This document shows, in pieces, positions 1 to 41,372 of a DNA stretch of 41,372 nucleotides. The stretch is from a candidate division WOR-3 bacterium (GTDB lineage Bacteria; Hydrothermota; 32-111), in assembly GCA_030592285.1 (NCBI GenBank), contig JAUVJU010000002.1, positions 1 to 41,372 on the forward strand. Direction: 5' to 3'. The stretch's first letter is position 1, and each line of letters begins with the position of its first letter. The translations under genes were made by a program, and so were the position numbers. The notes under the pieces are model-generated. The model saw only the letters and a list, made by a program, of their open reading frames with translations. It ran no database searches and was not told the origin of the DNA.

Positions 1-2033
1 AAGGTGATTATAATATTAAACTAACAAGAAAAATGACATATGGAACCTTCAAAAAAGGTTTATTACATTATTATCAAATCTATAATAATTCAACAGAGAC
101 TTTTCAGAATATTTACCAAACATATAATGACGAATATATTCATAAAATTCCAGTATCATTGTTTGATTCAAAATTGTATTTTAGAGTAAAAGTTTTTGAT
201 AAAATTACAGCAGGAGGTTTATATTCAAATACAGTTATAATGTGGCCTCCAGTTGATGGTGATCCAATAGTACAATACACAGATAAAACAGATGCAACAG
301 GATATGCCAATGGAAGAAAAATAGTTGTTGATAGCCTTGAAAACATTCATGTAATTTATACAAAGAGTGATAGCGTATTTTATACAGTTTCATCAGATGA
401 TGGAGAGCAGTGGAACTGTAATGAGTTTATAGGACAAGGATATGCTCCAGCAATTAATTTATTAAATGATGGAACTCCTGTTATATGTTGGGTAAACAAT
501 AACAATATATATAGTAAAAAGAAAATAGCAGATAATTGGGATACAGAATCAACAATATATAGTTCAACAACTGCAAACATTGAATTTCTTTGTTTTGAAA
601 CTGATGTATTTGATAATTCCTATTTAGGATGGGTAGAAGATGGACCCAAAGGAAGTAAAGTAAATATCTCTGATTATGATAGTAAAGAAACAGGAGCAGT
701 ATTAGCTCCTATACCAATAGATGAGGGTGGACAACATGCATTTAAATGTCCATCAATATCAATAAAGGCAAATTCTGATATTGTAATTAGTTGGAGTAAA
801 AATGGAGAAATATATTATTATGATAATGAAACAGGAAAGGAAAAAATAAATTCAATTGAAGGAATAGGAGAACATCCGATAATCAGTTCATATGGTGATA
901 AAACATCAGTAATATGGAGAGAACAATTATATGATGGAACATATAGAATAGTAAAAAGAACAAAAATAGATATTGGCTGGAAAGATATTGAAGTAATAAG
1001 AGAAAATGAAACAAAGGAATTAAACTATCCATATGTGGTAAATGGCTGTCAATATTTATTCAGTAAAGAGAATGAGTTCGGAGATAAGGATATAATACAT
1101 ATTGGTGAATTTAAAGGTGGATGGATAATGGAGTATCAGAATATATCACTGAAATCAGGAGGAGATTCATATCATCCAAGTGCATACTATAGACAGAATT
1201 GGCCTAAAGGTAAACTATATATGTTATGGACTGAGGATATGAGTATTAATCAGGAAAACACCAGAGCATTACCAACATTAATACCAGTAAAATTATATAT
1301 GAAAGATGATATGGATCCAATTGAATACATATATGCAGATTGTGGAACAGAAATGGGAGATGTTTACAATATACAGAAATTTGATACTATATATTATAAT
1401 AATCTACCTGAATATACTGTTGACTATGATAATTATCAACTCAGTTATAGATTTACATCATTGAATCCGGGAAGAAGATATAAGATTAAATTTGTGTTTT
1501 ATCAGAAAAGTGGAGAAACAGTAAGTCAGAGGATTGGAATAGATACAAGGGTTAATAAAGTGAAAAAGATATATAATGATAAGATTACCGAATTAGAAGA
1601 ATGGATACCTAATAGCTGTATCAGAGATGGAGAAATAAGAGTGGATATCAGCAAAATGTCAGGTCCTTATGCAGTATGTTCGGAGATAATACTATATGAA
1701 TTTGAGAAAAATAATGATGAAGAGAAAAATGAACTAAAGAAAAGCATTACAACTCAAAACATATTATCAGAAAAAATAACAATAAGTGAAAATAATTCAG
1801 ATATCAAAATCAGTTTTACTATGAATGATGCGAATAATGTAAAGGTTTCTGTTTTTAATGTATTAGGCCAAGAAATCAAAACATTGATAAATGAACAATT
1901 GAATGAAGGGAATCATACTATTGAATGGAATAAAGAGGATAAGTTTAATAGTAGGATATCCAATGGAATCTATTTTATAATTATTGATACAGAAAAACAA
2001 AGAAAAACAATAAAAACTAATGTAATTAGATAG
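1..2033 (+). CDS. Secreted Asp-box/BNR-like protein with T9SS C-terminal sorting domain (probably 5' partial)
   Basis: The reading frame of the listed ORF (33..2033) stays open back to base 3. The listed Met has no signal peptide, so the gene likely starts upstream of the window. It has an Asp-box-like SSDDGEQW. The C-terminal ~80 aa (KISFTMNDANNVKVSVFNVLGQEIKTL...NGIYFIIIDTEKQRKTIKTNVIR) matches the Por/T9SS CTD pattern seen in three other proteins here. Confidence 0.6.
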   Translation, partial: GDYNIKLTRKMTYGTFKKGLLHYYQIYNNSTETFQNIYQTYNDEYIHKIPVSLFDSKLYFRVKVFDKITAGGLYSNTVIMWPPVDGDPIVQYTDKTDATGYANGRKIVVDSLENIHVIYTKSDSVFYTVSSDDGEQWNCNEFIGQGYAPAINLLNDGTPVICWVNNNNIYSKKKIADNWDTESTIYSSTTANIEFLCFETDVFDNSYLGWVEDGPKGSKVNISDYDSKETGAVLAPIPIDEGGQHAFKCPSISIKANSDIVISWSKNGEIYYYDNETGKEKINSIEGIGEHPIISSYGDKTSVIWREQLYDGTYRIVKRTKIDIGWKDIEVIRENETKELNYPYVVNGCQYLFSKENEFGDKDIIHIGEFKGGWIMEYQNISLKSGGDSYHPSAYYRQNWPKGKLYMLWTEDMSINQENTRALPTLIPVKLYMKDDMDPIEYIYADCGTEMGDVYNIQKFDTIYYNNLPEYTVDYDNYQLSYRFTSLNPGRRYKIKFVFYQKSGETVSQRIGIDTRVNKVKKIYNDKITELEEWIPNSCIRDGEIRVDISKMSGPYAVCSEIILYEFEKNNDEEKNELKKSITTQNILSEKITISENNSDIKISFTMNDANNVKVSVFNVLGQEIKTLINEQLNEGNHTIEWNKEDKFNSRISNGIYFIIIDTEKQRKTIKTNVIR

Positions 2034-6250: not shown

Positions 6251-7494
6251 AAGGTGGAAAAACACTTAAAGGGAAATTAAAGGCAGGTGGTTCAAAAAAT
6301 GCATCACTACCCATTATGGCTGCTTCTTTAATGGCTGAAGGAGAAACAATCCTTCATAATTGTCCTGATGTTGTTGATGTAAGATATATGATGAAGGTAC
6401 TTTCATATCTTGGAGCGGATGTATCAATGAAAGGAAACACTTTGAGGATCAAAGTTCCTGGAAAAATAAAAAATACAGCACCATATGACCTTGTAAGAAA
6501 AATGCGTGCCTCATATTATGTACTTGGAGCATTAATAGGTAAACAGAAAAGTGCTGTTCTTTCTTTGCCGGGGGGGTGTGCTATAGGAGAAAGACCTATT
6601 GATCTACATATAAAGGGATTTAAGTCACTGGGGTGTAATGTGGTATTGAAGCATGGTTATGTATATGTTAAATGCAAGAAATTGAAGGCTAATGAGATTT
6701 ATCTTGAAGGTAAATTTGGTACATCAATGGGAGCAACAATAAATGTGCTTATGGCTGCTGTTTTTGCAAAAGGAAAAACAATTATTAAGGGAGCGGCTCT
6801 TGAACCCGAGATAGCTGATGTTGCAAGCTTTCTTAATAGAATGGGGGCTGATATAAAAGGATTAGATACACCTATACTTGAAATAAATGGAATAGATAAA
6901 TTAGAACCAACAGAATATACAATTCTTTCGGATAGAATTGAATCAGGCACTCTTTTAGCTGCTGCATCAATAACAGGTGGAGAATTAACCCTATCAAATA
7001 CAAATCCTGAACAATACTCAGAGGTCTTGAATAAATTCACAGAAATAGGGGATAGTGTTCAAATTGATGGAAACACAATATATCTTAAAGGAAGTAAACA
7101 GAAAAAGAGTGTAGAAATAGATATAATGCCTTATCCATATTTTCCAACCGATATGCAGGCACAATTTATGAGCATACTGATTAAGGCAAATGGAATTTCA
7201 ACTATTACTGAAAATGTATTTACAAAGAGATTTATGCATATTCCTGAATTGAAAAGAATGGGAGCAGATATTGAACTTAGAGATAATACAGCAATAATTA
7301 AAGGTGTTAAAAAATTATCAGGAGCACCTGTAATGGCATCTGATCTACGTGCTTCTGCTGCACTTGTATTAGCTGGACTTGTAGCAGATGGTGAAACGGA
7401 AGTTAAAAGGATCTATCATATTGATCGTGGATATGAACATATAGAAAAAAAGTTGAGAAAAATTGGTGCTCATATTAGGAGATATAAAAAGTGA
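6232..7494 (+). CDS. murA: UDP-N-acetylglucosamine 1-carboxyvinyltransferase
   Basis: It resembles MurA over its full length: MDRFIIEGGKTLKGKLKAGGSKNASLPIMAA, and the catalytic-Cys loop LPGGCAIGERPIDLHIKG. Confidence 0.95.
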   Translation: MDRFIIEGGKTLKGKLKAGGSKNASLPIMAASLMAEGETILHNCPDVVDVRYMMKVLSYLGADVSMKGNTLRIKVPGKIKNTAPYDLVRKMRASYYVLGALIGKQKSAVLSLPGGCAIGERPIDLHIKGFKSLGCNVVLKHGYVYVKCKKLKANEIYLEGKFGTSMGATINVLMAAVFAKGKTIIKGAALEPEIADVASFLNRMGADIKGLDTPILEINGIDKLEPTEYTILSDRIESGTLLAAASITGGELTLSNTNPEQYSEVLNKFTEIGDSVQIDGNTIYLKGSKQKKSVEIDIMPYPYFPTDMQAQFMSILIKANGISTITENVFTKRFMHIPELKRMGADIELRDNTAIIKGVKKLSGAPVMASDLRASAALVLAGLVADGETEVKRIYHIDRGYEHIEKKLRKIGAHIRRYKK

Positions 7495-13242: not shown

Positions 13243-13559
13243 TAGTATTAATTATTTTATCATTTATTACAATTAGTGGAAATGAAGCAATTTTTGTGAA
13301 TGATCCATTTTTTTCTCCTGATAAAATAGATCATTTTTTTACTGCAATGGCAATAGCAGCAGGCACTTCAGTATTAACAAGTATAATAATAAATGATAGT
13401 GATTCAAATTTAAAAATTGGAATTGATGTATCTGTACCGCTCACATTATCTATTATTAAAGAAATTTATGATGGCGTCTCTAAAACAGGCGAGGTTTCAT
13501 ATAAGGATTTAATATATGATTTTGTTGGACTTACTGCAGGAATTCTAATAGCGAGGTAA
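13227..13559 (+). CDS. Small membrane or lipoprotein-like protein, possibly YfiM/DUF2279-like
   Basis: It is 110 aa with a signal-like N-terminus. The PDKIDHFF and KEIYDG...SYKDLIYDFVGL pattern is reminiscent of DUF2279. This is a weak call. Confidence 0.4.
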   Translation: MRKLLIVLIILSFITISGNEAIFVNDPFFSPDKIDHFFTAMAIAAGTSVLTSIIINDSDSNLKIGIDVSVPLTLSIIKEIYDGVSKTGEVSYKDLIYDFVGLTAGILIAR

Positions 13560-14130
13560 TTATGTGTTTTTCTTTTCTGCTCCGTCACACAAGTAAACGG
13601 ATAAACTGCTGCGAATTGCAAGCATACAAAACGGTTAATCGCAGATGCTCATCCTCTTTCTTGTCTTCCTCCGCAGAAAATTGTCTTGTTCTGCGTCTTT
13701 CTCTTTGGAAAGGTGAGGACTGTTTACTCTGGGGAGCATAGATGCAACCCGATATTTCTTTCAGAGTTCCCCAGAGTAAATGTGTGAACCTTTTCATCAG
13801 AATTATATTATTCTTTTTCTTTTCTTTCTTTTTTTTCTGCTCCGTCACACAAGTAAAGGAGGTATATTCTGAGTAATTCGAGGAATATATTACGAATGAA
13901 TAATCTGAAAAATATGTTGGAATCTATCTTTATTGATTATGTTATCGCTCCCTCACACAAGCAAATAAATGAACTTGCTGCTCTGTGTATGCCGCAAACA
14001 GGACAAATGAGCAGATGCTCATTATATTGCTTGTCTTCGTCCGCTTTACCAATCCTACTCATGTCAAAACTTCTTTATCCGTTTAATAGATTTTTTATGT
14101 TTAATAGTGTAATGGTTTTTATGATTAAAA
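13560..14130. repeat. Mosaic repeat island I1 (modules X, Z, core hairpin, Y)
   Basis: The 25-nt direct repeat ttttctgctccgtcacacaagtaaa occurs at 13573-13597 and 13833-13857. The motif gcagatgctcat..cttgtcttc.tccgc occurs at 13641-13674 and 14011-14044. There are Y-type palindromes at 13863-13889 and 13897-13925. The same modules recur at 36220-36781 and 40850-41372. Confidence 0.85.
13703..13799. repeat. Core nested-hairpin element, copy A (candidate structured RNA)
   Basis: A perfect 13-bp stem pairs tttactctgggga (13723-13735) with tccccagagtaaa (13768-13780). It sits inside an outer stem of ggaaaggt (13707-13714) with accttttc (13788-13795). A T-rich tract follows on the + strand. A second copy lies at 40936-41031. 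Confidence 0.8.
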
Positions 14131-14142
14131 TAGGAGGTAATT

Positions 14143-14364
14143 ATGTTTGGAAAAAACAAGAAAAAAAAGGATTTTGAAAAAATAAACTTATCTTATCAAC
14201 AGATGTTTTATACAAATGCATTATCCATTGAAGCAATTGTGAATGTGCTTGAGAAAAAAGGTATTTTAAAAAAAGAAGATGTCTTGGCGGAAATTAAAAA
14301 ACTGGGAAAAGAAAGAAAACAGAAAATGGAGGCAATTGATGAAAACATCAAAAAGAGTGATTAA
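14143..14364 (+). CDS. Small Lys/Glu-rich hypothetical protein (73 aa)
   Basis: A strong AGGAGG RBS lies 6 nt upstream of the ATG. The ORF ends just before the aminotransferase start. I recognise no family. Confidence 0.5.
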   Translation: MFGKNKKKKDFEKINLSYQQMFYTNALSIEAIVNVLEKKGILKKEDVLAEIKKLGKERKQKMEAIDENIKKSD

Positions 14365-14365
14365 T

Positions 14366-15535
14366 ATGCAGGAATCACCCATAAGAAAACTTTTGCCATT
14401 TGCAGTAAATGCAAAAGAAAGAGGTATTCATGTTTATCATTTAAATATTGGTCAGCCAGATATTCACACTCCCAAAATTATGATTGACGCAATCAAGAAG
14501 TATAATGAAAAAGTATTAGCATATGGACCATCACAAGGATTAAAGGAATCAAGAGATACTATAAGGAATTATCTTAATAAATATAATTATAATGTAAGCA
14601 GTGAAGATATATTTATTACTACAGGTGGTAGTGAAGCAATAGTTTTTGCTATGATGGCGGTTTGTGATAATAGGGATGAGATTATAATACCCGAACCATT
14701 TTATACAAATTATAATGGTTTTGCTGCAATGGCAGATGTGAAGATTCGTCCTTTAACAACAAATGTTGAAAATGGATTTCACTTGCCATCTGATGAAGAA
14801 ATTGAAAAATTGATAAATGAAAGAACCAAAGCAATATTAATATGCTCTCCAAATAATCCAACAGGTACCGTTTTCACAAGAGAAGAAATTGAGCGGGTAA
14901 TTAAAATTGCTGAAAAACACGATCTATTTGTCTTATCCGATGAGGTTTACAGAGAATTTGTTTTTGATGGTAAAAAACATACATCAGTGTTGGAATTTGA
15001 ATATGCGAAAGAAAGGATTGTTGTGATGGATTCCATTTCAAAGAGATTCTCTGCATGTGGAGCAAGAATAGGTAATATTGTAACAAAGAATAAGGAACTT
15101 ATGAAAGGTATTCTGAAATTAGGACAGGCACGATTATGTCCTCCAACCCTTGAGCAGATAGGAATGATTGAGGGTTATAAATATATGAATGAGTTTATGG
15201 ATGATATGATAAAGGAATATGAAAATAGAAGAGATGTTGTATATGAAGAAGTTAAAGCCATTAAAGGTGTTTTTACTGAAAAACCGGAAGGAGCATTTTA
15301 TTGTATTCTAAAGCTTCCAATTGATGATGCTGATAAATTTGCAAAATGGATGCTTACTGATTTTGAAGTTGATTCAAAAACAGTAATGATCGCACCTGCT
15401 CAAGGCTTCTATGCTACAGAAGGAAAAGGCATTGATGAGGTGAGGATTGCCTATGTATTAAATACTACTGATCTTAAAGATGCAATAAATATATTAAAAA
15501 AAGGAATAGAAACATATAATAAGAGTAGTATGTAA
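14366..15535 (+). CDS. Class I/II PLP-dependent aminotransferase (aspartate aminotransferase-like)
   Basis: It starts MQESPIRKLL and carries NIGQPD and the PLP-lysine motif SKRFSACGARIG. I prefer the ATG at 14366. The listed 14279 start would overlap the small ORF and adds a low-complexity leader. Confidence 0.88.
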   Translation: MQESPIRKLLPFAVNAKERGIHVYHLNIGQPDIHTPKIMIDAIKKYNEKVLAYGPSQGLKESRDTIRNYLNKYNYNVSSEDIFITTGGSEAIVFAMMAVCDNRDEIIIPEPFYTNYNGFAAMADVKIRPLTTNVENGFHLPSDEEIEKLINERTKAILICSPNNPTGTVFTREEIERVIKIAEKHDLFVLSDEVYREFVFDGKKHTSVLEFEYAKERIVVMDSISKRFSACGARIGNIVTKNKELMKGILKLGQARLCPPTLEQIGMIEGYKYMNEFMDDMIKEYENRRDVVYEEVKAIKGVFTEKPEGAFYCILKLPIDDADKFAKWMLTDFEVDSKTVMIAPAQGFYATEGKGIDEVRIAYVLNTTDLKDAINILKKGIETYNKSSM

Positions 15536-15557
15536 TTTATTCACAAAGGAGTAAAAT

Positions 15558-16805
15558 ATGAAAAAGGAATGTTTGAAGAAAACCGATATTGAGATATTTA
15601 ATGCAATACAGAATGAAGAAGATAGACAGAAAGGGAAAATAGAACTTATTGCCAGCGAGAATTTTGTTTCTGATGCAGTGCTTGAAGCAATGGGATCTGT
15701 AATGACAAATAAATATGCAGAGGGCTATCCGAGAAAGAGATATTATGGCGGCTGTGAATTTGTTGATGATGCAGAGGAATTGGCAATTGAAAGAGCAAAG
15801 AAACTCTTTGGAGCAGAGCATGCTAATGTACAGCCACATAGTGGTTCACAGGCAAATATGACTGCATATTTTTCATTTCTTGATCCCGGCGATACATTTT
15901 TTGGTCTCAATCTTTCTCATGGCGGGCATCTTACTCATGGTCATAAAGTCAGTTTTTCCGGCTTTCTTTATAATGCTGTGCATTATGGAGTTGAAAAGGA
16001 AACAGAAGTTATTGATTATATGAAGTTAAAGGAATTAGCAAAAGAACATAAACCAAAAATGATCATAACAGGTGCATCTGCATATCCAAGAACATTGGAT
16101 TTTGGTAAATTCCGTGAAATATGCGACAGTATTGATGCAAAATTATTAGTAGATATTGCTCATATTGCAGGTCTTGTTGCAACGGGACTTCATCCATCAC
16201 CAATTCCATTTGCTGATGTTGTTACATCAACTACACATAAAACATTGAGAGGACCAAGAGGTGGATTAATTCTATCAAAGCAGGAATATGCGAAATTAGT
16301 TGATAAAAAATTATTTCCCGGTATTCAGGGTGGTCCATTAATGCATGTAATAGCAGCAAAGGCGGTTGCATTTAAAGAAGCAATGAAGCCGGAATTCAAA
16401 AAATATCAGGAGCAGGTTATCAAAAATGCAAAAGCATTATCAAATGCATTAACTGAAAAAGGATTCAGATTGGTATCAGGCGGCACAGATACACATCTTA
16501 TGCTTGTTGATTTAAGACCCAAGGGAGTTACGGGCAAAGTAGCCGAAAAAGCATTGGATAGGGCAGGTATTACTTGTAATAAGAATACTATTCCCTTTGA
16601 TCCTGAAAAACCATTTGTTGCATCAGGAATAAGATTGGGTACCCCTGCATTAACAACGCGTGGTATGAAAGAAAATGATATGAAAATTATTGCTGAGTTT
16701 ATAGATAGAGTAATTGTGAATATTGAAAACGAAGAAGAAATTGAAAAAGTAAAAAAAGATGTTGCCGAATTTACTGCAAGCTTCCCATTGGTCCGTGGAC
16801 AATAA
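15558..16805 (+). CDS. glyA: Serine hydroxymethyltransferase
   Basis: It has an AAGGAG RBS. Motifs are [23 protein letters not shown] and the PLP-lysine motif [12 protein letters not shown]. Confidence 0.95.
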
Positions 16806-16836
16806 AGCTAAATATTTAACAAGTATTATTAAATAT

Positions 16837-17050
16837 TAGGGACGGTTGTTCAAATTTTATAAATATTAATAGATATAAAATTTTATAAATATATAAAAAT
16901 AACAATATTTAATGAAAAAGTGACGAATTTACTGTTAAATTATCCAAAAAACGGAAAAAATGTAAACTTTTTACCAATTATTAGCAATATTGATATGATT
17001 TTTAATTTTTTCTGAAATTAGAATTTATAAAATTTGAACAACCGTCCCTA
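16837..17050. repeat. MITE-like element: perfect 28-bp inverted repeats flanking a 158-nt AT-rich spacer
   Basis: tagggacggttgttcaaattttataaat (16837-16864) is the exact reverse complement of atttataaaatttgaacaaccgtcccta (17023-17050). The element sits right after the glyA stop. The arm core TAGGGACGGTTGT also forms the 3395-3431 hairpin. Confidence 0.85.
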
Positions 17051-17111
17051 TTCTTTACTTGTAAAGTATTATAAATACTATAATAAGTAAGTCAGAAAAA
17101 TATTTTTTTTG

Positions 17112-17140
17112 TTGACATTTTCAATTCTCATTCGTATAAT
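17112..17140 (+). promoter_or_regulatory. Consensus sigma70-type promoter, TTGACA-17 nt-TATAAT
   Basis: TTGACA lies at 17112-17117 and TATAAT at 17135-17140, with exact 17-nt spacing. It is about 25 nt upstream of the start codon of the low-complexity protein. Confidence 0.6.
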
Positions 17141-17164
17141 TTATAAAGAACAATGGAGGTCAAA

Positions 17165-18118
17165 ATGAAACGTTTAATGATAATCACACTTCTTATAGTT
17201 TTCGCATTTGTATTTGTGTATCCACAAATAAACACAAGGGATGATAATGTGAAAAAGGAAGAGACAATAAGTAATACTGGGAATGGAAATGGAGAATCCA
17301 AGAGTAAAGATAAAATCAAGAACAAGCAAGAGGAAAAAGATAAGGACAAGGATAAAGATAAAGATAAAGATAAAACCAAGGATAAAATAAAGAATAAGCA
17401 GGAACAGAAAGATGAAGACAAAGATAAGGATAAAGATAAGGATAAAATAAAGGAAAAGACAAAAAAGAAAAAAGATGACAATAACGGAAACAACGGAAAC
17501 AACGGAAATAACGGGAACAACGGTAATAGCGGCAACAATGGCAATAATGGCAATAACGGGAACAATGGTAATAGCGGAAACAATGGAAACAACGGAAATA
17601 ATGGAAATAATGGGAACAATAGTAATAACGGGAATAACAACAACAATAATAATAATAACAATAATAATAATAACAATAATAACAATGGCAATAATGGACA
17701 TCACTATGGGCATGATAAAGATGATCAGGGACATCATTATGGCTGGGATAAGAACAAAGGAAAATATTATTACAGAGGCAGATACTATGGACCACCTCAT
17801 TATGGTGCATCATCAAGTTCATCTGGATGGTGTCTTTTGGGTTGTATGGGCGGAACATTATTTAATTGTGCAGGTTGTCTTGGTGTAACCGGATGTGCAT
17901 CTTGTTTAACACCATCGGCACCCATGATCATTATTGAAATGGATGATAATAAGCATACATTCAAAAAGGCATATGTATCAAAAACGAAAAATTCAAGAGT
18001 AAGATCCGCTTTTACCGGTGGAACAATAGGAACAATAATTAATACAGCTATAATAGTTGCTTTATCTATTAAATATACACAGGATATTAGCAATTGGATT
18101 GGCAATATACGATTTTAA
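17165..18118 (+). CDS. Secreted/membrane low-complexity protein (KD repeats, NGN repeats, poly-Asn, His/Tyr-rich, Cys-rich tail)
   Basis: A GGAGG RBS at 17155-17159 precedes the ATG at 17165. The signal peptide is MKRLMIITLLIVFAFVFVYPQ. It is followed by KDKIKNKQE-KD(KD)n twice, (NGN)n, 18 consecutive Asn and HHYGHDKDDQGHHYGWDKNKGKYYYRGRYYGPPHYG. The tail has GWCLLGCMGGTLFNCAGCLGVTGCASCL and a terminal hydrophobic helix. Confidence 0.65.
   Translation: MKRLMIITLLIVFAFVFVYPQINTRDDNVKKEETISNTGNGNGESKSKDKIKNKQEEKDKDKDKDKDKDKTKDKIKNKQEQKDEDKDKDKDKDKIKEKTKKKKDDNNGNNGNNGNNGNNGNSGNNGNNGNNGNNGNSGNNGNNGNNGNNGNNSNNGNNNNNNNNNNNNNNNNNNGNNGHHYGHDKDDQGHHYGWDKNKGKYYYRGRYYGPPHYGASSSSSGWCLLGCMGGTLFNCAGCLGVTGCASCLTPSAPMIIIEMDDNKHTFKKAYVSKTKNSRVRSAFTGGTIGTIINTAIIVALSIKYTQDISNWIGNIRF
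17306..17694 (+). repeat. In-frame coding tandem repeats (GAT-AAA type, AAC-GGN-AAY type and an AAY run)
   Basis: These are imperfect short-period DNA repeats. They leave all six frames open, which explains the four overlapping listed ORFs. Confidence 0.85.
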
Positions 18119-23759: not shown

Positions 23760-23769
23760 TATGATTGTT

Positions 23770-23842
23770 GCACCCGTAGCTCAATGGATAGAGCAGCGGA
23801 CTCCGGTTCCGCAGGCTGAAGGTTCAAATCCTTTCGGGTGTA
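23770..23842 (+). tRNA. tRNA-Arg (anticodon CCG)
   Basis: I folded a full cloverleaf by hand. The acceptor stem is gcacccg/cgggtgt, the D stem gctc/gagc and the anticodon stem gcgga/tccgc. The anticodon loop is ctCCGgt. The T arm is gaagg-ttcaaat-ccttt. CCA is not encoded. Confidence 0.93.
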
Positions 23843-23850
23843 TATTGCTA

Positions 23851-36219: not shown

Positions 36220-36781
36220 AGTATTTACTGATTGTTTTTAATTGCTCTGGGTTTTGTCATTGCAATGAACGAAACGATGGGGTTGAAGATTCGCCGTGTC
36301 GGGGATTTGCTGTGCTGCAAACTCGCCGTGGTGAGGTGAGGCGAACAATCTCCTTATTGACTATTCATTCTTTTCGGATCCGTCACACAATCAACGGATG
36401 TCACATTCTGAATAAATTGAAGAATGTATTAAATATTAACAATTATTTACATTTTATTCTTTCTCGCTCCCTCACACAATCAATAAGAGAAGCTGCAGCG
36501 AGTAGAATAAATGCCATTTGTACCAAAGATGTACATTCCGAACAATTTGAGGAATGTATTGATTATATTGATTGTCTTTGTCCGCTTGAATCCGTTTTTA
36601 TTCTGAGTAATATTGCTTTTATTGTTTGTCTTCCTCCGCAGAAAAGATACATTCTGAGGAATTCGAAAAATATGTTTGTAGGGACAGGGCTTGACCTGTC
36701 CACCAATATGTGCGTCATTAATAATTTGAGGAATATGTTGGAATCCAGTATTATCTTTGTAATTGGGAGAAACAATAGCGT
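36220..36781. repeat. Mosaic repeat island I5, inserted between two glycosyltransferase genes
   Basis: The X hairpin pairs atccgt with acggat (36378-36399), and a second X lies near 36462-36500. Y palindromes lie at 36403-36427, 36532-36558, 36649-36675 and 36719-36747. The Z module tgtcttcctccgcagaaaag is at 36627-36646. There is a GC hairpin, gggacagggcttgacctgtcc, near 36681-36701. Confidence 0.85.
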
Positions 36782-40806: not shown

Positions 40807-40834
40807 ATTATATATAATATATATATATTGTCAA
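40807..40834 (-). promoter_or_regulatory. Sigma70-like promoter, TTGACA-16 nt-TATAAT (minus strand)
   Basis: On the - strand, TTGACA lies at 40834-40829 and TATAAT at 40812-40807, upstream of the 40786 start. Confidence 0.45.
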
Positions 40835-40849
40835 GTTAAATATAGTAAT

Positions 40850-41280
40850 AATTGATTATATTGGTTGCCCTCCTCCGCAGAAAAGATTCTTATCCTTATT
40901 GTTTATCTTTATCCGTTTCTGCTCCTAATGTTTTTCTTTGGAAAGGTGAGGACTGTTTACTCTGATGAGCATAGAAACAACCCGATTTTCTCTCGGAGTT
41001 CATCAGAGTAAATGTGTGAGCCTTTTCATCATGATTATTCTTTTTATCTTTTCCTGGCATGCCTATGGCATGCTACCTCACACATTCAATGGAGGTACAT
41101 TCCGATAATTTGAGGAATGTATTACGCATTATTTTAACATCTATTGTTTATCTTTTCTACTCCGTCACACAACCAAATAAAATGGTGGGCGGGTTTAGAA
41201 CCAATATATTCTTCGGATTACTCAGAATATACCCCTACAAACACAATGAATTTATAAATGATCAAAATTCACAGATGCAT
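40850..41280. repeat. Mosaic repeat island I6 (Z, core hairpin copy B, X, Y and other modules)
   Basis: The Z module ccctcctccgcagaaaag is at 40868-40885. The core is at 40936-41031. The X hairpin pairs tacctc with gaggta (41074-41097). The Y palindrome is at 41096-41121. A second X lies near 41150-41185 and an inverted Y near 41206-41232. The order is colinear with 13662-13895. Confidence 0.85.
40936..41031. repeat. Core nested-hairpin element, copy B (candidate structured RNA)
   Basis: A 13-bp stem pairs tttactctgatga (40956-40968) with tcatcagagtaaa (41000-41012). Relative to copy A, GG/CC has changed to AT/AT on both strands, which preserves pairing. The outer ggaaaggt/gccttttc stem and the T-rich 3' flank are conserved. 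Confidence 0.8.
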
Positions 41281-41372
41281 ATTCCGAATAATCTGAGGAA
41301 TATGTTGATTCCGAATAATCTGAGGAATATGTTGATTCCGAATAATCTGAGGAATATGTTGATTCCGAATAA
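41281..41372. repeat. 27-bp tandem repeat array (3 full units plus a partial one, runs off the window)
   Basis: The unit attccgaataatctgaggaatatgttg occurs at 41281-41307, 41308-41334 and 41335-41361. A partial unit covers 41362-41372. All full copies are identical. The unit contains the Y-type palindrome attcc...ggaat. Confidence 0.9.

Follow-up and report, generated by a model that had tools for sequence, protein, structure and literature searches.

The hairpin H is best explained as a non-coding module of lineage-specific, mobile, non-autonomous intergenic repeats in a narrow WOR-3-like clade, a reading to which we assign a probability of about 0.68. The H family is new, the kind of element is already known and the phylum is poorly known. 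The window, which is the whole stretch of 41,372 nucleotides that was analysed, is chromosomal DNA of roughly 31% GC whose proteins are closest to those of candidate division WOR-3. H occurs in multiple copies which were observed in intergenic positions only, and in the window it forms one module of co-oriented short-repeat clusters that fill three intergenic gaps (Table 1). The modules within each cluster run in a near-uniform direction.

Table 1. Positions of hairpin H, its companion modules and their boundaries, in the window unless another contig is named
Feature	Position	Strand	Remarks
Left 13-bp direct duplication (GAGGTAATTATGT)	13553-13565	+	flanks cluster 1
Repeat cluster 1	13566-14133	+	between two genes that abut in relatives
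PQ hairpin, cluster 1	13570-13685		first module of the cluster
H copy A	13703-13799	+	outer stem 13706-13714 with 13788-13796; 137 bits with covariance model R1
H copy A, inner stem	13722-13737 with 13766-13781		16 bp
Solo P arm, cluster 1	13834-13856		follows H
R palindrome, cluster 1	13857-13892		follows the solo P arm
Second PQ hairpin, cluster 1	13938-14055		diverged; followed by the tail of the cluster
Right 13-bp duplication (GAGGTAATTATGT)	14134-14146	+	the 73-aa gene downstream has its ribosome-binding site and ATG here
Repeat cluster 2	36340-36760	+	between two glycosyltransferase genes; P, R and Q modules, no H
Promoter TTGACA-16-TATAAT	40834-40807	-	perfect
Repeat cluster 3	40850-41372	+	Q arm, H copy B, P-like module, R modules, R tandem array
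H copy B	40936-41031	+	outer stem 40939-40947 with 41020-41028; 122 bits with covariance model R1
H copy B, inner stem	40955-40970 with 40998-41013		carries the compensated pairs as AT/AT
R tandem array (ATTCCGAATAATCTGAGGAATATGTTG)	41281-41372		27-nt unit, 3.4 copies, perfect; runs off the window end
PQ hairpin, L008	8465-8580		
PQ hairpin, L016	1421-1537		
PQ hairpin, L018	1646-1760		
PQ hairpin, L001	1935-2050	-	

The original prediction of two nested hairpins holds at the positions given in Table 1, where copies A and B are about 90% identical and differ by 9 substitutions and one indel when aligned end to end. In both copies an outer stem of 8-9 bp is followed by a small asymmetric internal loop and then by the inner stem. 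The compensatory change that had been proposed was observed as described: GG paired with CC in copy A is replaced by AT paired with AT in copy B and the 13-bp inner stem (TTTACTCTGGGGA/TCCCCAGAGTAAA in copy A; TTTACTCTGATGA/TCATCAGAGTAAA in copy B) is perfect in both, reaching 16 bp if G.U pairs are counted. The enclosing outer stem also pairs as suggested, with one or two wobbles, between GGAAAGGT and ACCTTTTC (copy A) or GCCTTTTC (copy B), and the CAGAGT motif does occur twice in copy A with CGGAGT at the proximal site of copy B. The T-rich tract said to follow each copy is present but does not abut the helix; it begins ~20 nt further on and belongs, as a pyrimidine leader, to the repeat module that comes next (P). 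A 21-mer common to both copies has two matches in the window against 0.00 expected, and H gave plus-strand RNA folding z-scores of -4.3 and -3.4, with weaker values for the minus strand. On account of both results, the recurrence of H in the window is not due to chance.

Five further copies were found outside the window. An exact 21-mer scan over one genome per species gave three, all in a single related MAG (L001, L002 and L003), and the orthologous contigs of relatives gave two more: the H of L008 is the ortholog of copy A and that of L009 is diverged and lies on the opposite strand. The total is therefore seven copies, i.e. two in the window and one each in L008, L001, L009, L002 and L003, which represent five independent versions. 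When about 150 kb of sequence was searched with a covariance model, no full copies beyond these seven were found, although a fragment of the 3' part of H was located in L008 at 7082-7134. A 19-mer scan of metagenomes returned two matches, both of which are chance matches in GC-rich coding DNA. No match was found in viral contigs searched with H, R and Q patterns or in plasmid and phage collections, and an ortholog of copy B was not recovered among the relatives, whose contigs stop at cluster 3.

H forms a single uninterrupted hairpin with a length of 97-135 nt. Six of the seven copies have the same 29-nt 5' arm, whereas the loops vary. An extra loop hairpin of 20-50 nt, which lies between two CCCGA/CCCG repeats, is found in the H of L001, L009, L002 and L003 and in neither copy of the window; as judged from these sequences, the window copies look like deletion derivatives that lack it. 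In L001 the outer stem contains two mismatches, and in L009 wobbles maintain its pairing. The H of L002 and that of L003 each have one R element in the loop and another in place of the 3' outer arm.

Our alignment of the seven sequences shows pairing in 91% of the cells compared with 31-53% when the partners were slid. Three pairs of the inner stem were observed to change on both sides: A-U becomes G-C in L009, a second pair occurs as G-C, A-U and G-U, and G-C becomes U-A in copy B. Several one-sided changes, including those at 42/145 and 37/150, are compatible with wobble pairing. Whether additional copies would break or preserve the stem had been put forward as a test in the original prediction, and the further copies add two compensated inner-stem pairs. 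The covariation is supported only modestly by the statistics (29-39 of 500 shuffles score at least as high) because just five independent sequences contribute. The G.T wobbles are found on the sense strand of H, with 2-5 in each copy, while A.C mismatches are almost absent, and the sense strand gives the better RNA fold by 8-16 kcal/mol over the antisense strand. The structure of H is thus strand-specific, which speaks against a cruciform of double-stranded DNA or a plain inverted repeat bound by a protein and fits either an RNA or one DNA strand that folds while single-stranded.

H shares its clusters with two other modules. PQ is a second hairpin of about 110 nt with P (CTCCGTCACACAA) and Q (TTGTCTTCCTCCGCAGAAAA) as its two arms, and it also covaries, since 9 of its 30 predicted pairs were changed on both sides among six copies. 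R (ATTCYGARTAATYYGARGAAT) is a 21-nt palindrome of the form ATTCY-N11-RGAAT which consists of arms of 5-7 bp and an 11-nt centre; eight matches were found in the window with 0.1 expected. An R-related repeat reads as the start of a short ORF (ATGAATAATYTGARRAATATGTTGGAATC, MNNL[KR]NMLES...) at 13896-13933 and 36717-36754 of the window and at 1575-1640 of L016, and this ORF start probably arises from the repeat itself and does not mark a gene. The content of cluster 2 differs in the relatives L016 and L017, and the contig L015 ends there. Cluster 3 begins just beyond the perfect sigma-70 promoter of a minus-strand gene. Canonical sigma-70 promoters (TTGACA-16/17-TATAAT) at 40807-40834 (-) and 17105-17135 (+) were seen to bound clusters, and the repeats halt just outside them. 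The contig probably broke at the R tandem array, which runs off the window end. L004, L015, L018, L020, L021 and the window itself all end at repeat clusters, which is the expected behaviour of an assembler at high-copy repeats.

A comparison of relatives indicates that the clusters are inserted, lost and rearranged over short distances. Relatives preserve the order of the genes around copy A; the comparison covered the 97% relative (L008) and two relatives whose aminotransferase is 91% (L009) and 80% (L010) identical. Cluster 1 occupies 568 nt in the window and 444 nt in L008, and in both it lies between two copies of the 13-mer GAGGTAATTATGT; it is absent from L009 and L010, in which the flanking genes are 2-3 nt apart (...GAGGTAATTATGTTTGG...), and the empty site of L009 has just one copy of the 13-mer. 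In L002 an insert that contains R, located at the 5' end of H, is bordered by a 15-bp duplication (CCTCTTTGGAAAGGT). The 13-bp duplication surrounds the whole of cluster 1 and not H alone. L002 and L003 have 217 identical nucleotides in common, and the ends of this block coincide with module ends. The repeat set in the gap downstream of SHMT differs from genome to genome: the window and L018 carry a 230-nt inverted-repeat element, L008 carries minus-oriented P, Q and R with an H fragment, L009 carries plus-oriented R, P and Q, and the 80% relative has only an ordinary GC hairpin terminator and no repeats. None of the repeat modules was found in the 17-kb loci of the 80% relative.

Other variable features were noted. 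The 230-nt element lies at 16830-17057 of the window and has 71-nt inverted-repeat arms that are 76% complementary, with ends AGGGACGGTTGTTCAAATTTTATAAA.... The aminotransferase/SHMT gap is a variable site which is empty in the window (15535-15558) and occupied in L008 (4172-5557), L010 (11194-12234), L009 (5040-5422) and L018 (1607-1830); its contents in the relatives are a Schlafen/AlbA_2-HTH gene, an MscS channel gene, a minus-strand H or PQ. A motif GTTACCAWTAAAAAATGTYCCC... was found at cluster edges in L002 (6310-6350), L003 (4095-4135) and L020 (about 20-60, minus strand), and in L020 it stands where the window has cluster 3.

These observations can be combined into a model for the spread of H as a mobile repeat. 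H, PQ and R would together build the co-oriented mosaic arrays. By analogy with known systems, one strand of H would fold when single-stranded and would be recognised by a trans-acting enzyme encoded elsewhere, which may be a transposase, a recombinase or a nuclease. Only those copies that still pair would propagate, and this would produce the compensatory pattern, to which template-switch repair of the near-palindrome probably adds. Effects on neighbouring genes, if any, would be secondary. No transposase, recombinase or RAYT gene was found among the ORFs scanned in the 41-kb window and the loci of the relatives, and the neighbours of the H copies are housekeeping genes that encode SMC, a histidine kinase, an IF-2B-like protein, adenylate cyclase, an anti-sigma factor and similar proteins; H would thus be non-autonomous. 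The alternative raised in the original prediction, a structure selected at the DNA level such as a transposon end, is largely supported as far as a mobile element is concerned, but H is not located at the ends of a transposase-bearing unit. Several points weigh against the mobile reading: no mobilising enzyme was found in the sequence scanned, the 13-bp duplication encloses all of cluster 1, the covariation statistics are modest, and one block of cluster 1 is nearly invariant between two strains (see below). In addition, target duplications of 13-15 bp do not agree with the IS200/IS605-RAYT mechanism, which would otherwise be the best one for strand-specific hairpins.

Several families of known repeats resemble H in part. 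MITEs such as Correia/CREE, ERIC and RUP are imperfect palindromes of about 100-150 bp which are non-coding, intergenic and strain-variable and which show a direct duplication at insertion. H has about the same length, inverted-repeat arms (imperfect, with roughly 40 nt at the 5' end and as many at the 3' end), no coding capacity, an intergenic position, a variable presence and a duplication at insertion, so that it has the short, non-coding form with terminal inverted repeats that defines these elements. It differs from them in that the duplications were shown for the whole of cluster 1 and for an R-containing insert and not for H alone, and in that no parent insertion sequence with ends matching H was found in phage and plasmid collections or viral contigs. 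Furthermore, the conserved asymmetric internal loops and one-strand wobbles of H are needless for double-stranded repeats bound by a DDE transposase. REP and REPIN elements and the BIMEs of E. coli are likewise extragenic, hairpin-forming, non-coding and clustered, and compensatory changes are common in REPIN hairpins (PMC3116915) as they are here. The strand-specific structure of H is also as expected for the recognition of single-stranded DNA. However, H is a single continuous hairpin which contains no internal inverted doublet of 20-40-nt REPs and no GTAG-type 5' motif. The 13-bp and 15-bp duplications that flank the inserts are another difference from the REP/REPIN-RAYT system, where no duplication is expected; flanking duplications of 13-15 bp are not known as a feature of IS200/IS605-type transposition.

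The architecture matches that of the NIME arrays of Neisseria, in which a roughly 20-bp palindrome separates many module families of 50-150 bp and which differ between strains (PMC1797815). The palindrome is the target of a recombinase and its longer form is the target of the single-strand nuclease Ssn (PMC11893778). Both systems consist of intergenic arrays with a roughly 20-bp palindrome between modules, namely dRS3 (ATTCCC-N8-GGGAAT) in Neisseria and R here, and in both the content and length of the arrays vary between close relatives; the arrangement of short palindromes between diverse 50-150-bp modules in strain-variable intergenic arrays is thus found here as well. The sequences are different, since R (ATTCYGARTAATYYGARGAAT) does not match dRS3, and the phylum is another one. 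In addition, the H and PQ modules are long covarying hairpins, and neither a dRS3-type phage recombinase nor an Ssn nuclease was found in the sequence examined here. Integron attC sites were considered and rejected: the ends of H (GGAAAGGT...ACCTTTTC) lack the GTT/AAC cores (RYYYAAC ... GTTRRRY), and the two window copies are 27 kb apart among housekeeping genes with no cassette array.

The original prediction favoured a small structured RNA that ends in a terminator-like helix, and this is not supported: no Rfam match, promoter or canonical terminator was found, the orientation of H is mixed, and the clusters are present or absent among close relatives. Its remark that H could not be matched to an RNA family does stand, as an Rfam scan of the window at the gathering threshold gave only a tRNA. 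This tRNA-Arg (CCG) at 23769-23843 is the sole Rfam or ARAGORN match in the window. Permissive Rfam scans gave only sub-threshold matches to eukaryotic families (microRNA precursors, snoRNAs and a lncRNA) and to two unrelated prokaryotic sRNA families, and promoter and terminator scans at H called neither a promoter of its own nor a canonical terminator. Nevertheless, H might be a functional RNA transcribed from the sense strand. It could act as a small RNA or, in cis, as an mRNA element with a role in processing, stability or regulation, and it would be multi-copy because it travels with the repeat clusters. The compensatory changes in the inner stem, the G.U pairs confined to the sense strand together with its better RNA fold, and the location of copy A in sense orientation inside an operon would all agree with this, as would the ortholog of copy A with its PQ neighbour, which has one difference in 300 nt against about 5% in the flanking genes. 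We nonetheless consider such an RNA unlikely. Two sites have H in the same direction as the flanking genes and two have it in antisense, while the context is divergent or unknown at a further two, and H shows no bias in orientation relative to GC skew; this mixed orientation speaks against a terminator or a cis-acting mRNA element. The broken outer stem of L001, the split loop and R-derived 3' arm of L002 and L003, the loop hairpin that comes and goes between copies, and the site of copy A that is empty in close relatives with nothing substituting for it are also difficult to reconcile with a conserved RNA. A role as a transcription terminator or as a hairpin that protects mRNA 3' ends, as proposed for some REP elements, is very improbable. 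The stem is long and stable with pyrimidine-rich DNA downstream, and copy A and the H of L001 are co-oriented with their genes, but H lacks the GC-rich stem with a U run within 0-2 nt that characterises an intrinsic terminator, the T tract ~20 nt past the helix is part of the next module, and the terminator scan did not call H. Moreover, the genes around copy A are translationally coupled in relatives, half of the H copies are antisense to or upstream of genes, and downstream of SHMT the 80% relative relies on an ordinary GC hairpin as its terminator. A coding region or in-frame insertion was ruled out, as no ORF is conserved and no reading frame is open across all copies of H. A hammerhead ribozyme was also rejected: CUGAUGAG in copy B is core-like by eye, copy A has CUGGGGAG at this place and no stem II fits.

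H could instead be passive filler with no selected structure, comparable to the RS spacers of NIME arrays, with the R palindrome as the active site. The matched arms would then be produced by template switching within a near-palindrome during replication, whereby one arm is copied onto the other, and not by selection on pairing. The correction of quasipalindromes by template switching is an established process. The difference between copies A and B is a dinucleotide in each arm (GG to AT and CC to AT), for which one conversion is simpler than four point mutations; R is the module for which nesting, tandem amplification and a position at rearrangement breakpoints were observed; and damaged copies of H persist. 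Template switching should perfect the arms, however, and in all copies the G.T wobbles and asymmetric internal loops are conserved. The identity of the 29-nt 5' arm in six of seven copies beside variable loops and the wobble-compatible single-site changes at 42/145 and 37/150 are likewise not expected of filler. This explanation therefore appears doubtful to us, and the mobile hairpin module remains our preferred reading.

An odd feature of cluster 1 is the near-invariance of its PQ-H-P block. Positions 13560-13860 of the window and 2216-2516 of L008 differ by one mismatch in 300 nt (99.7% identity), whereas the flanking genes of the two genomes, aligned over about 4,480 bases, show 218 mismatches (94-98% identity), three of which fall in the last 60 nt before the block. 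At the flanking rate ~15 differences would be expected in 300 nt, and the Poisson probability of one or fewer is near 1e-5. The right half of cluster 1 is scrambled between the two, with 79% identity and large indels. The block may be invariant because it is strongly constrained, because the repeat alone was recently converted or transferred, or as an effect of assembly, and the invariance could be the result of purifying selection on a function and not of selfish spread. One proposal is that H and PQ are structured nucleic acids with a function in a repeat-based system of WOR-3-like bacteria that has not been described. They could be, for example, recognition or guide-like hairpins for a trans-acting recombinase or single-strand nuclease (by Ssn/NTS-like or bridge-RNA-like logic) which would control array recombination. 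This proposal would explain why the block is almost invariant despite the ~5% divergence of the neighbouring genes, and we regard it as quite unlikely. If the invariance does reflect function, the hairpins would be candidate recognition elements of an enzyme.

An uncultured, AT-rich WOR-3-like lineage thus carries dense and fast-changing mosaic intergenic repeats that are built like those of Neisseria and enterobacteria. Such clusters can land between genes that are coupled in translation, they break up the metagenome assemblies of the clade and they supply strain-level markers. A different type of repeat was noted within a coding region of the window: the ORF at 17153-18118 contains long tandem repeats of 9 nt and 12-18 nt (Asn/Gly-rich and Lys/Asp-rich) with a weak match to collagen repeats, and the contig L018 ends within the same tandem repeats.
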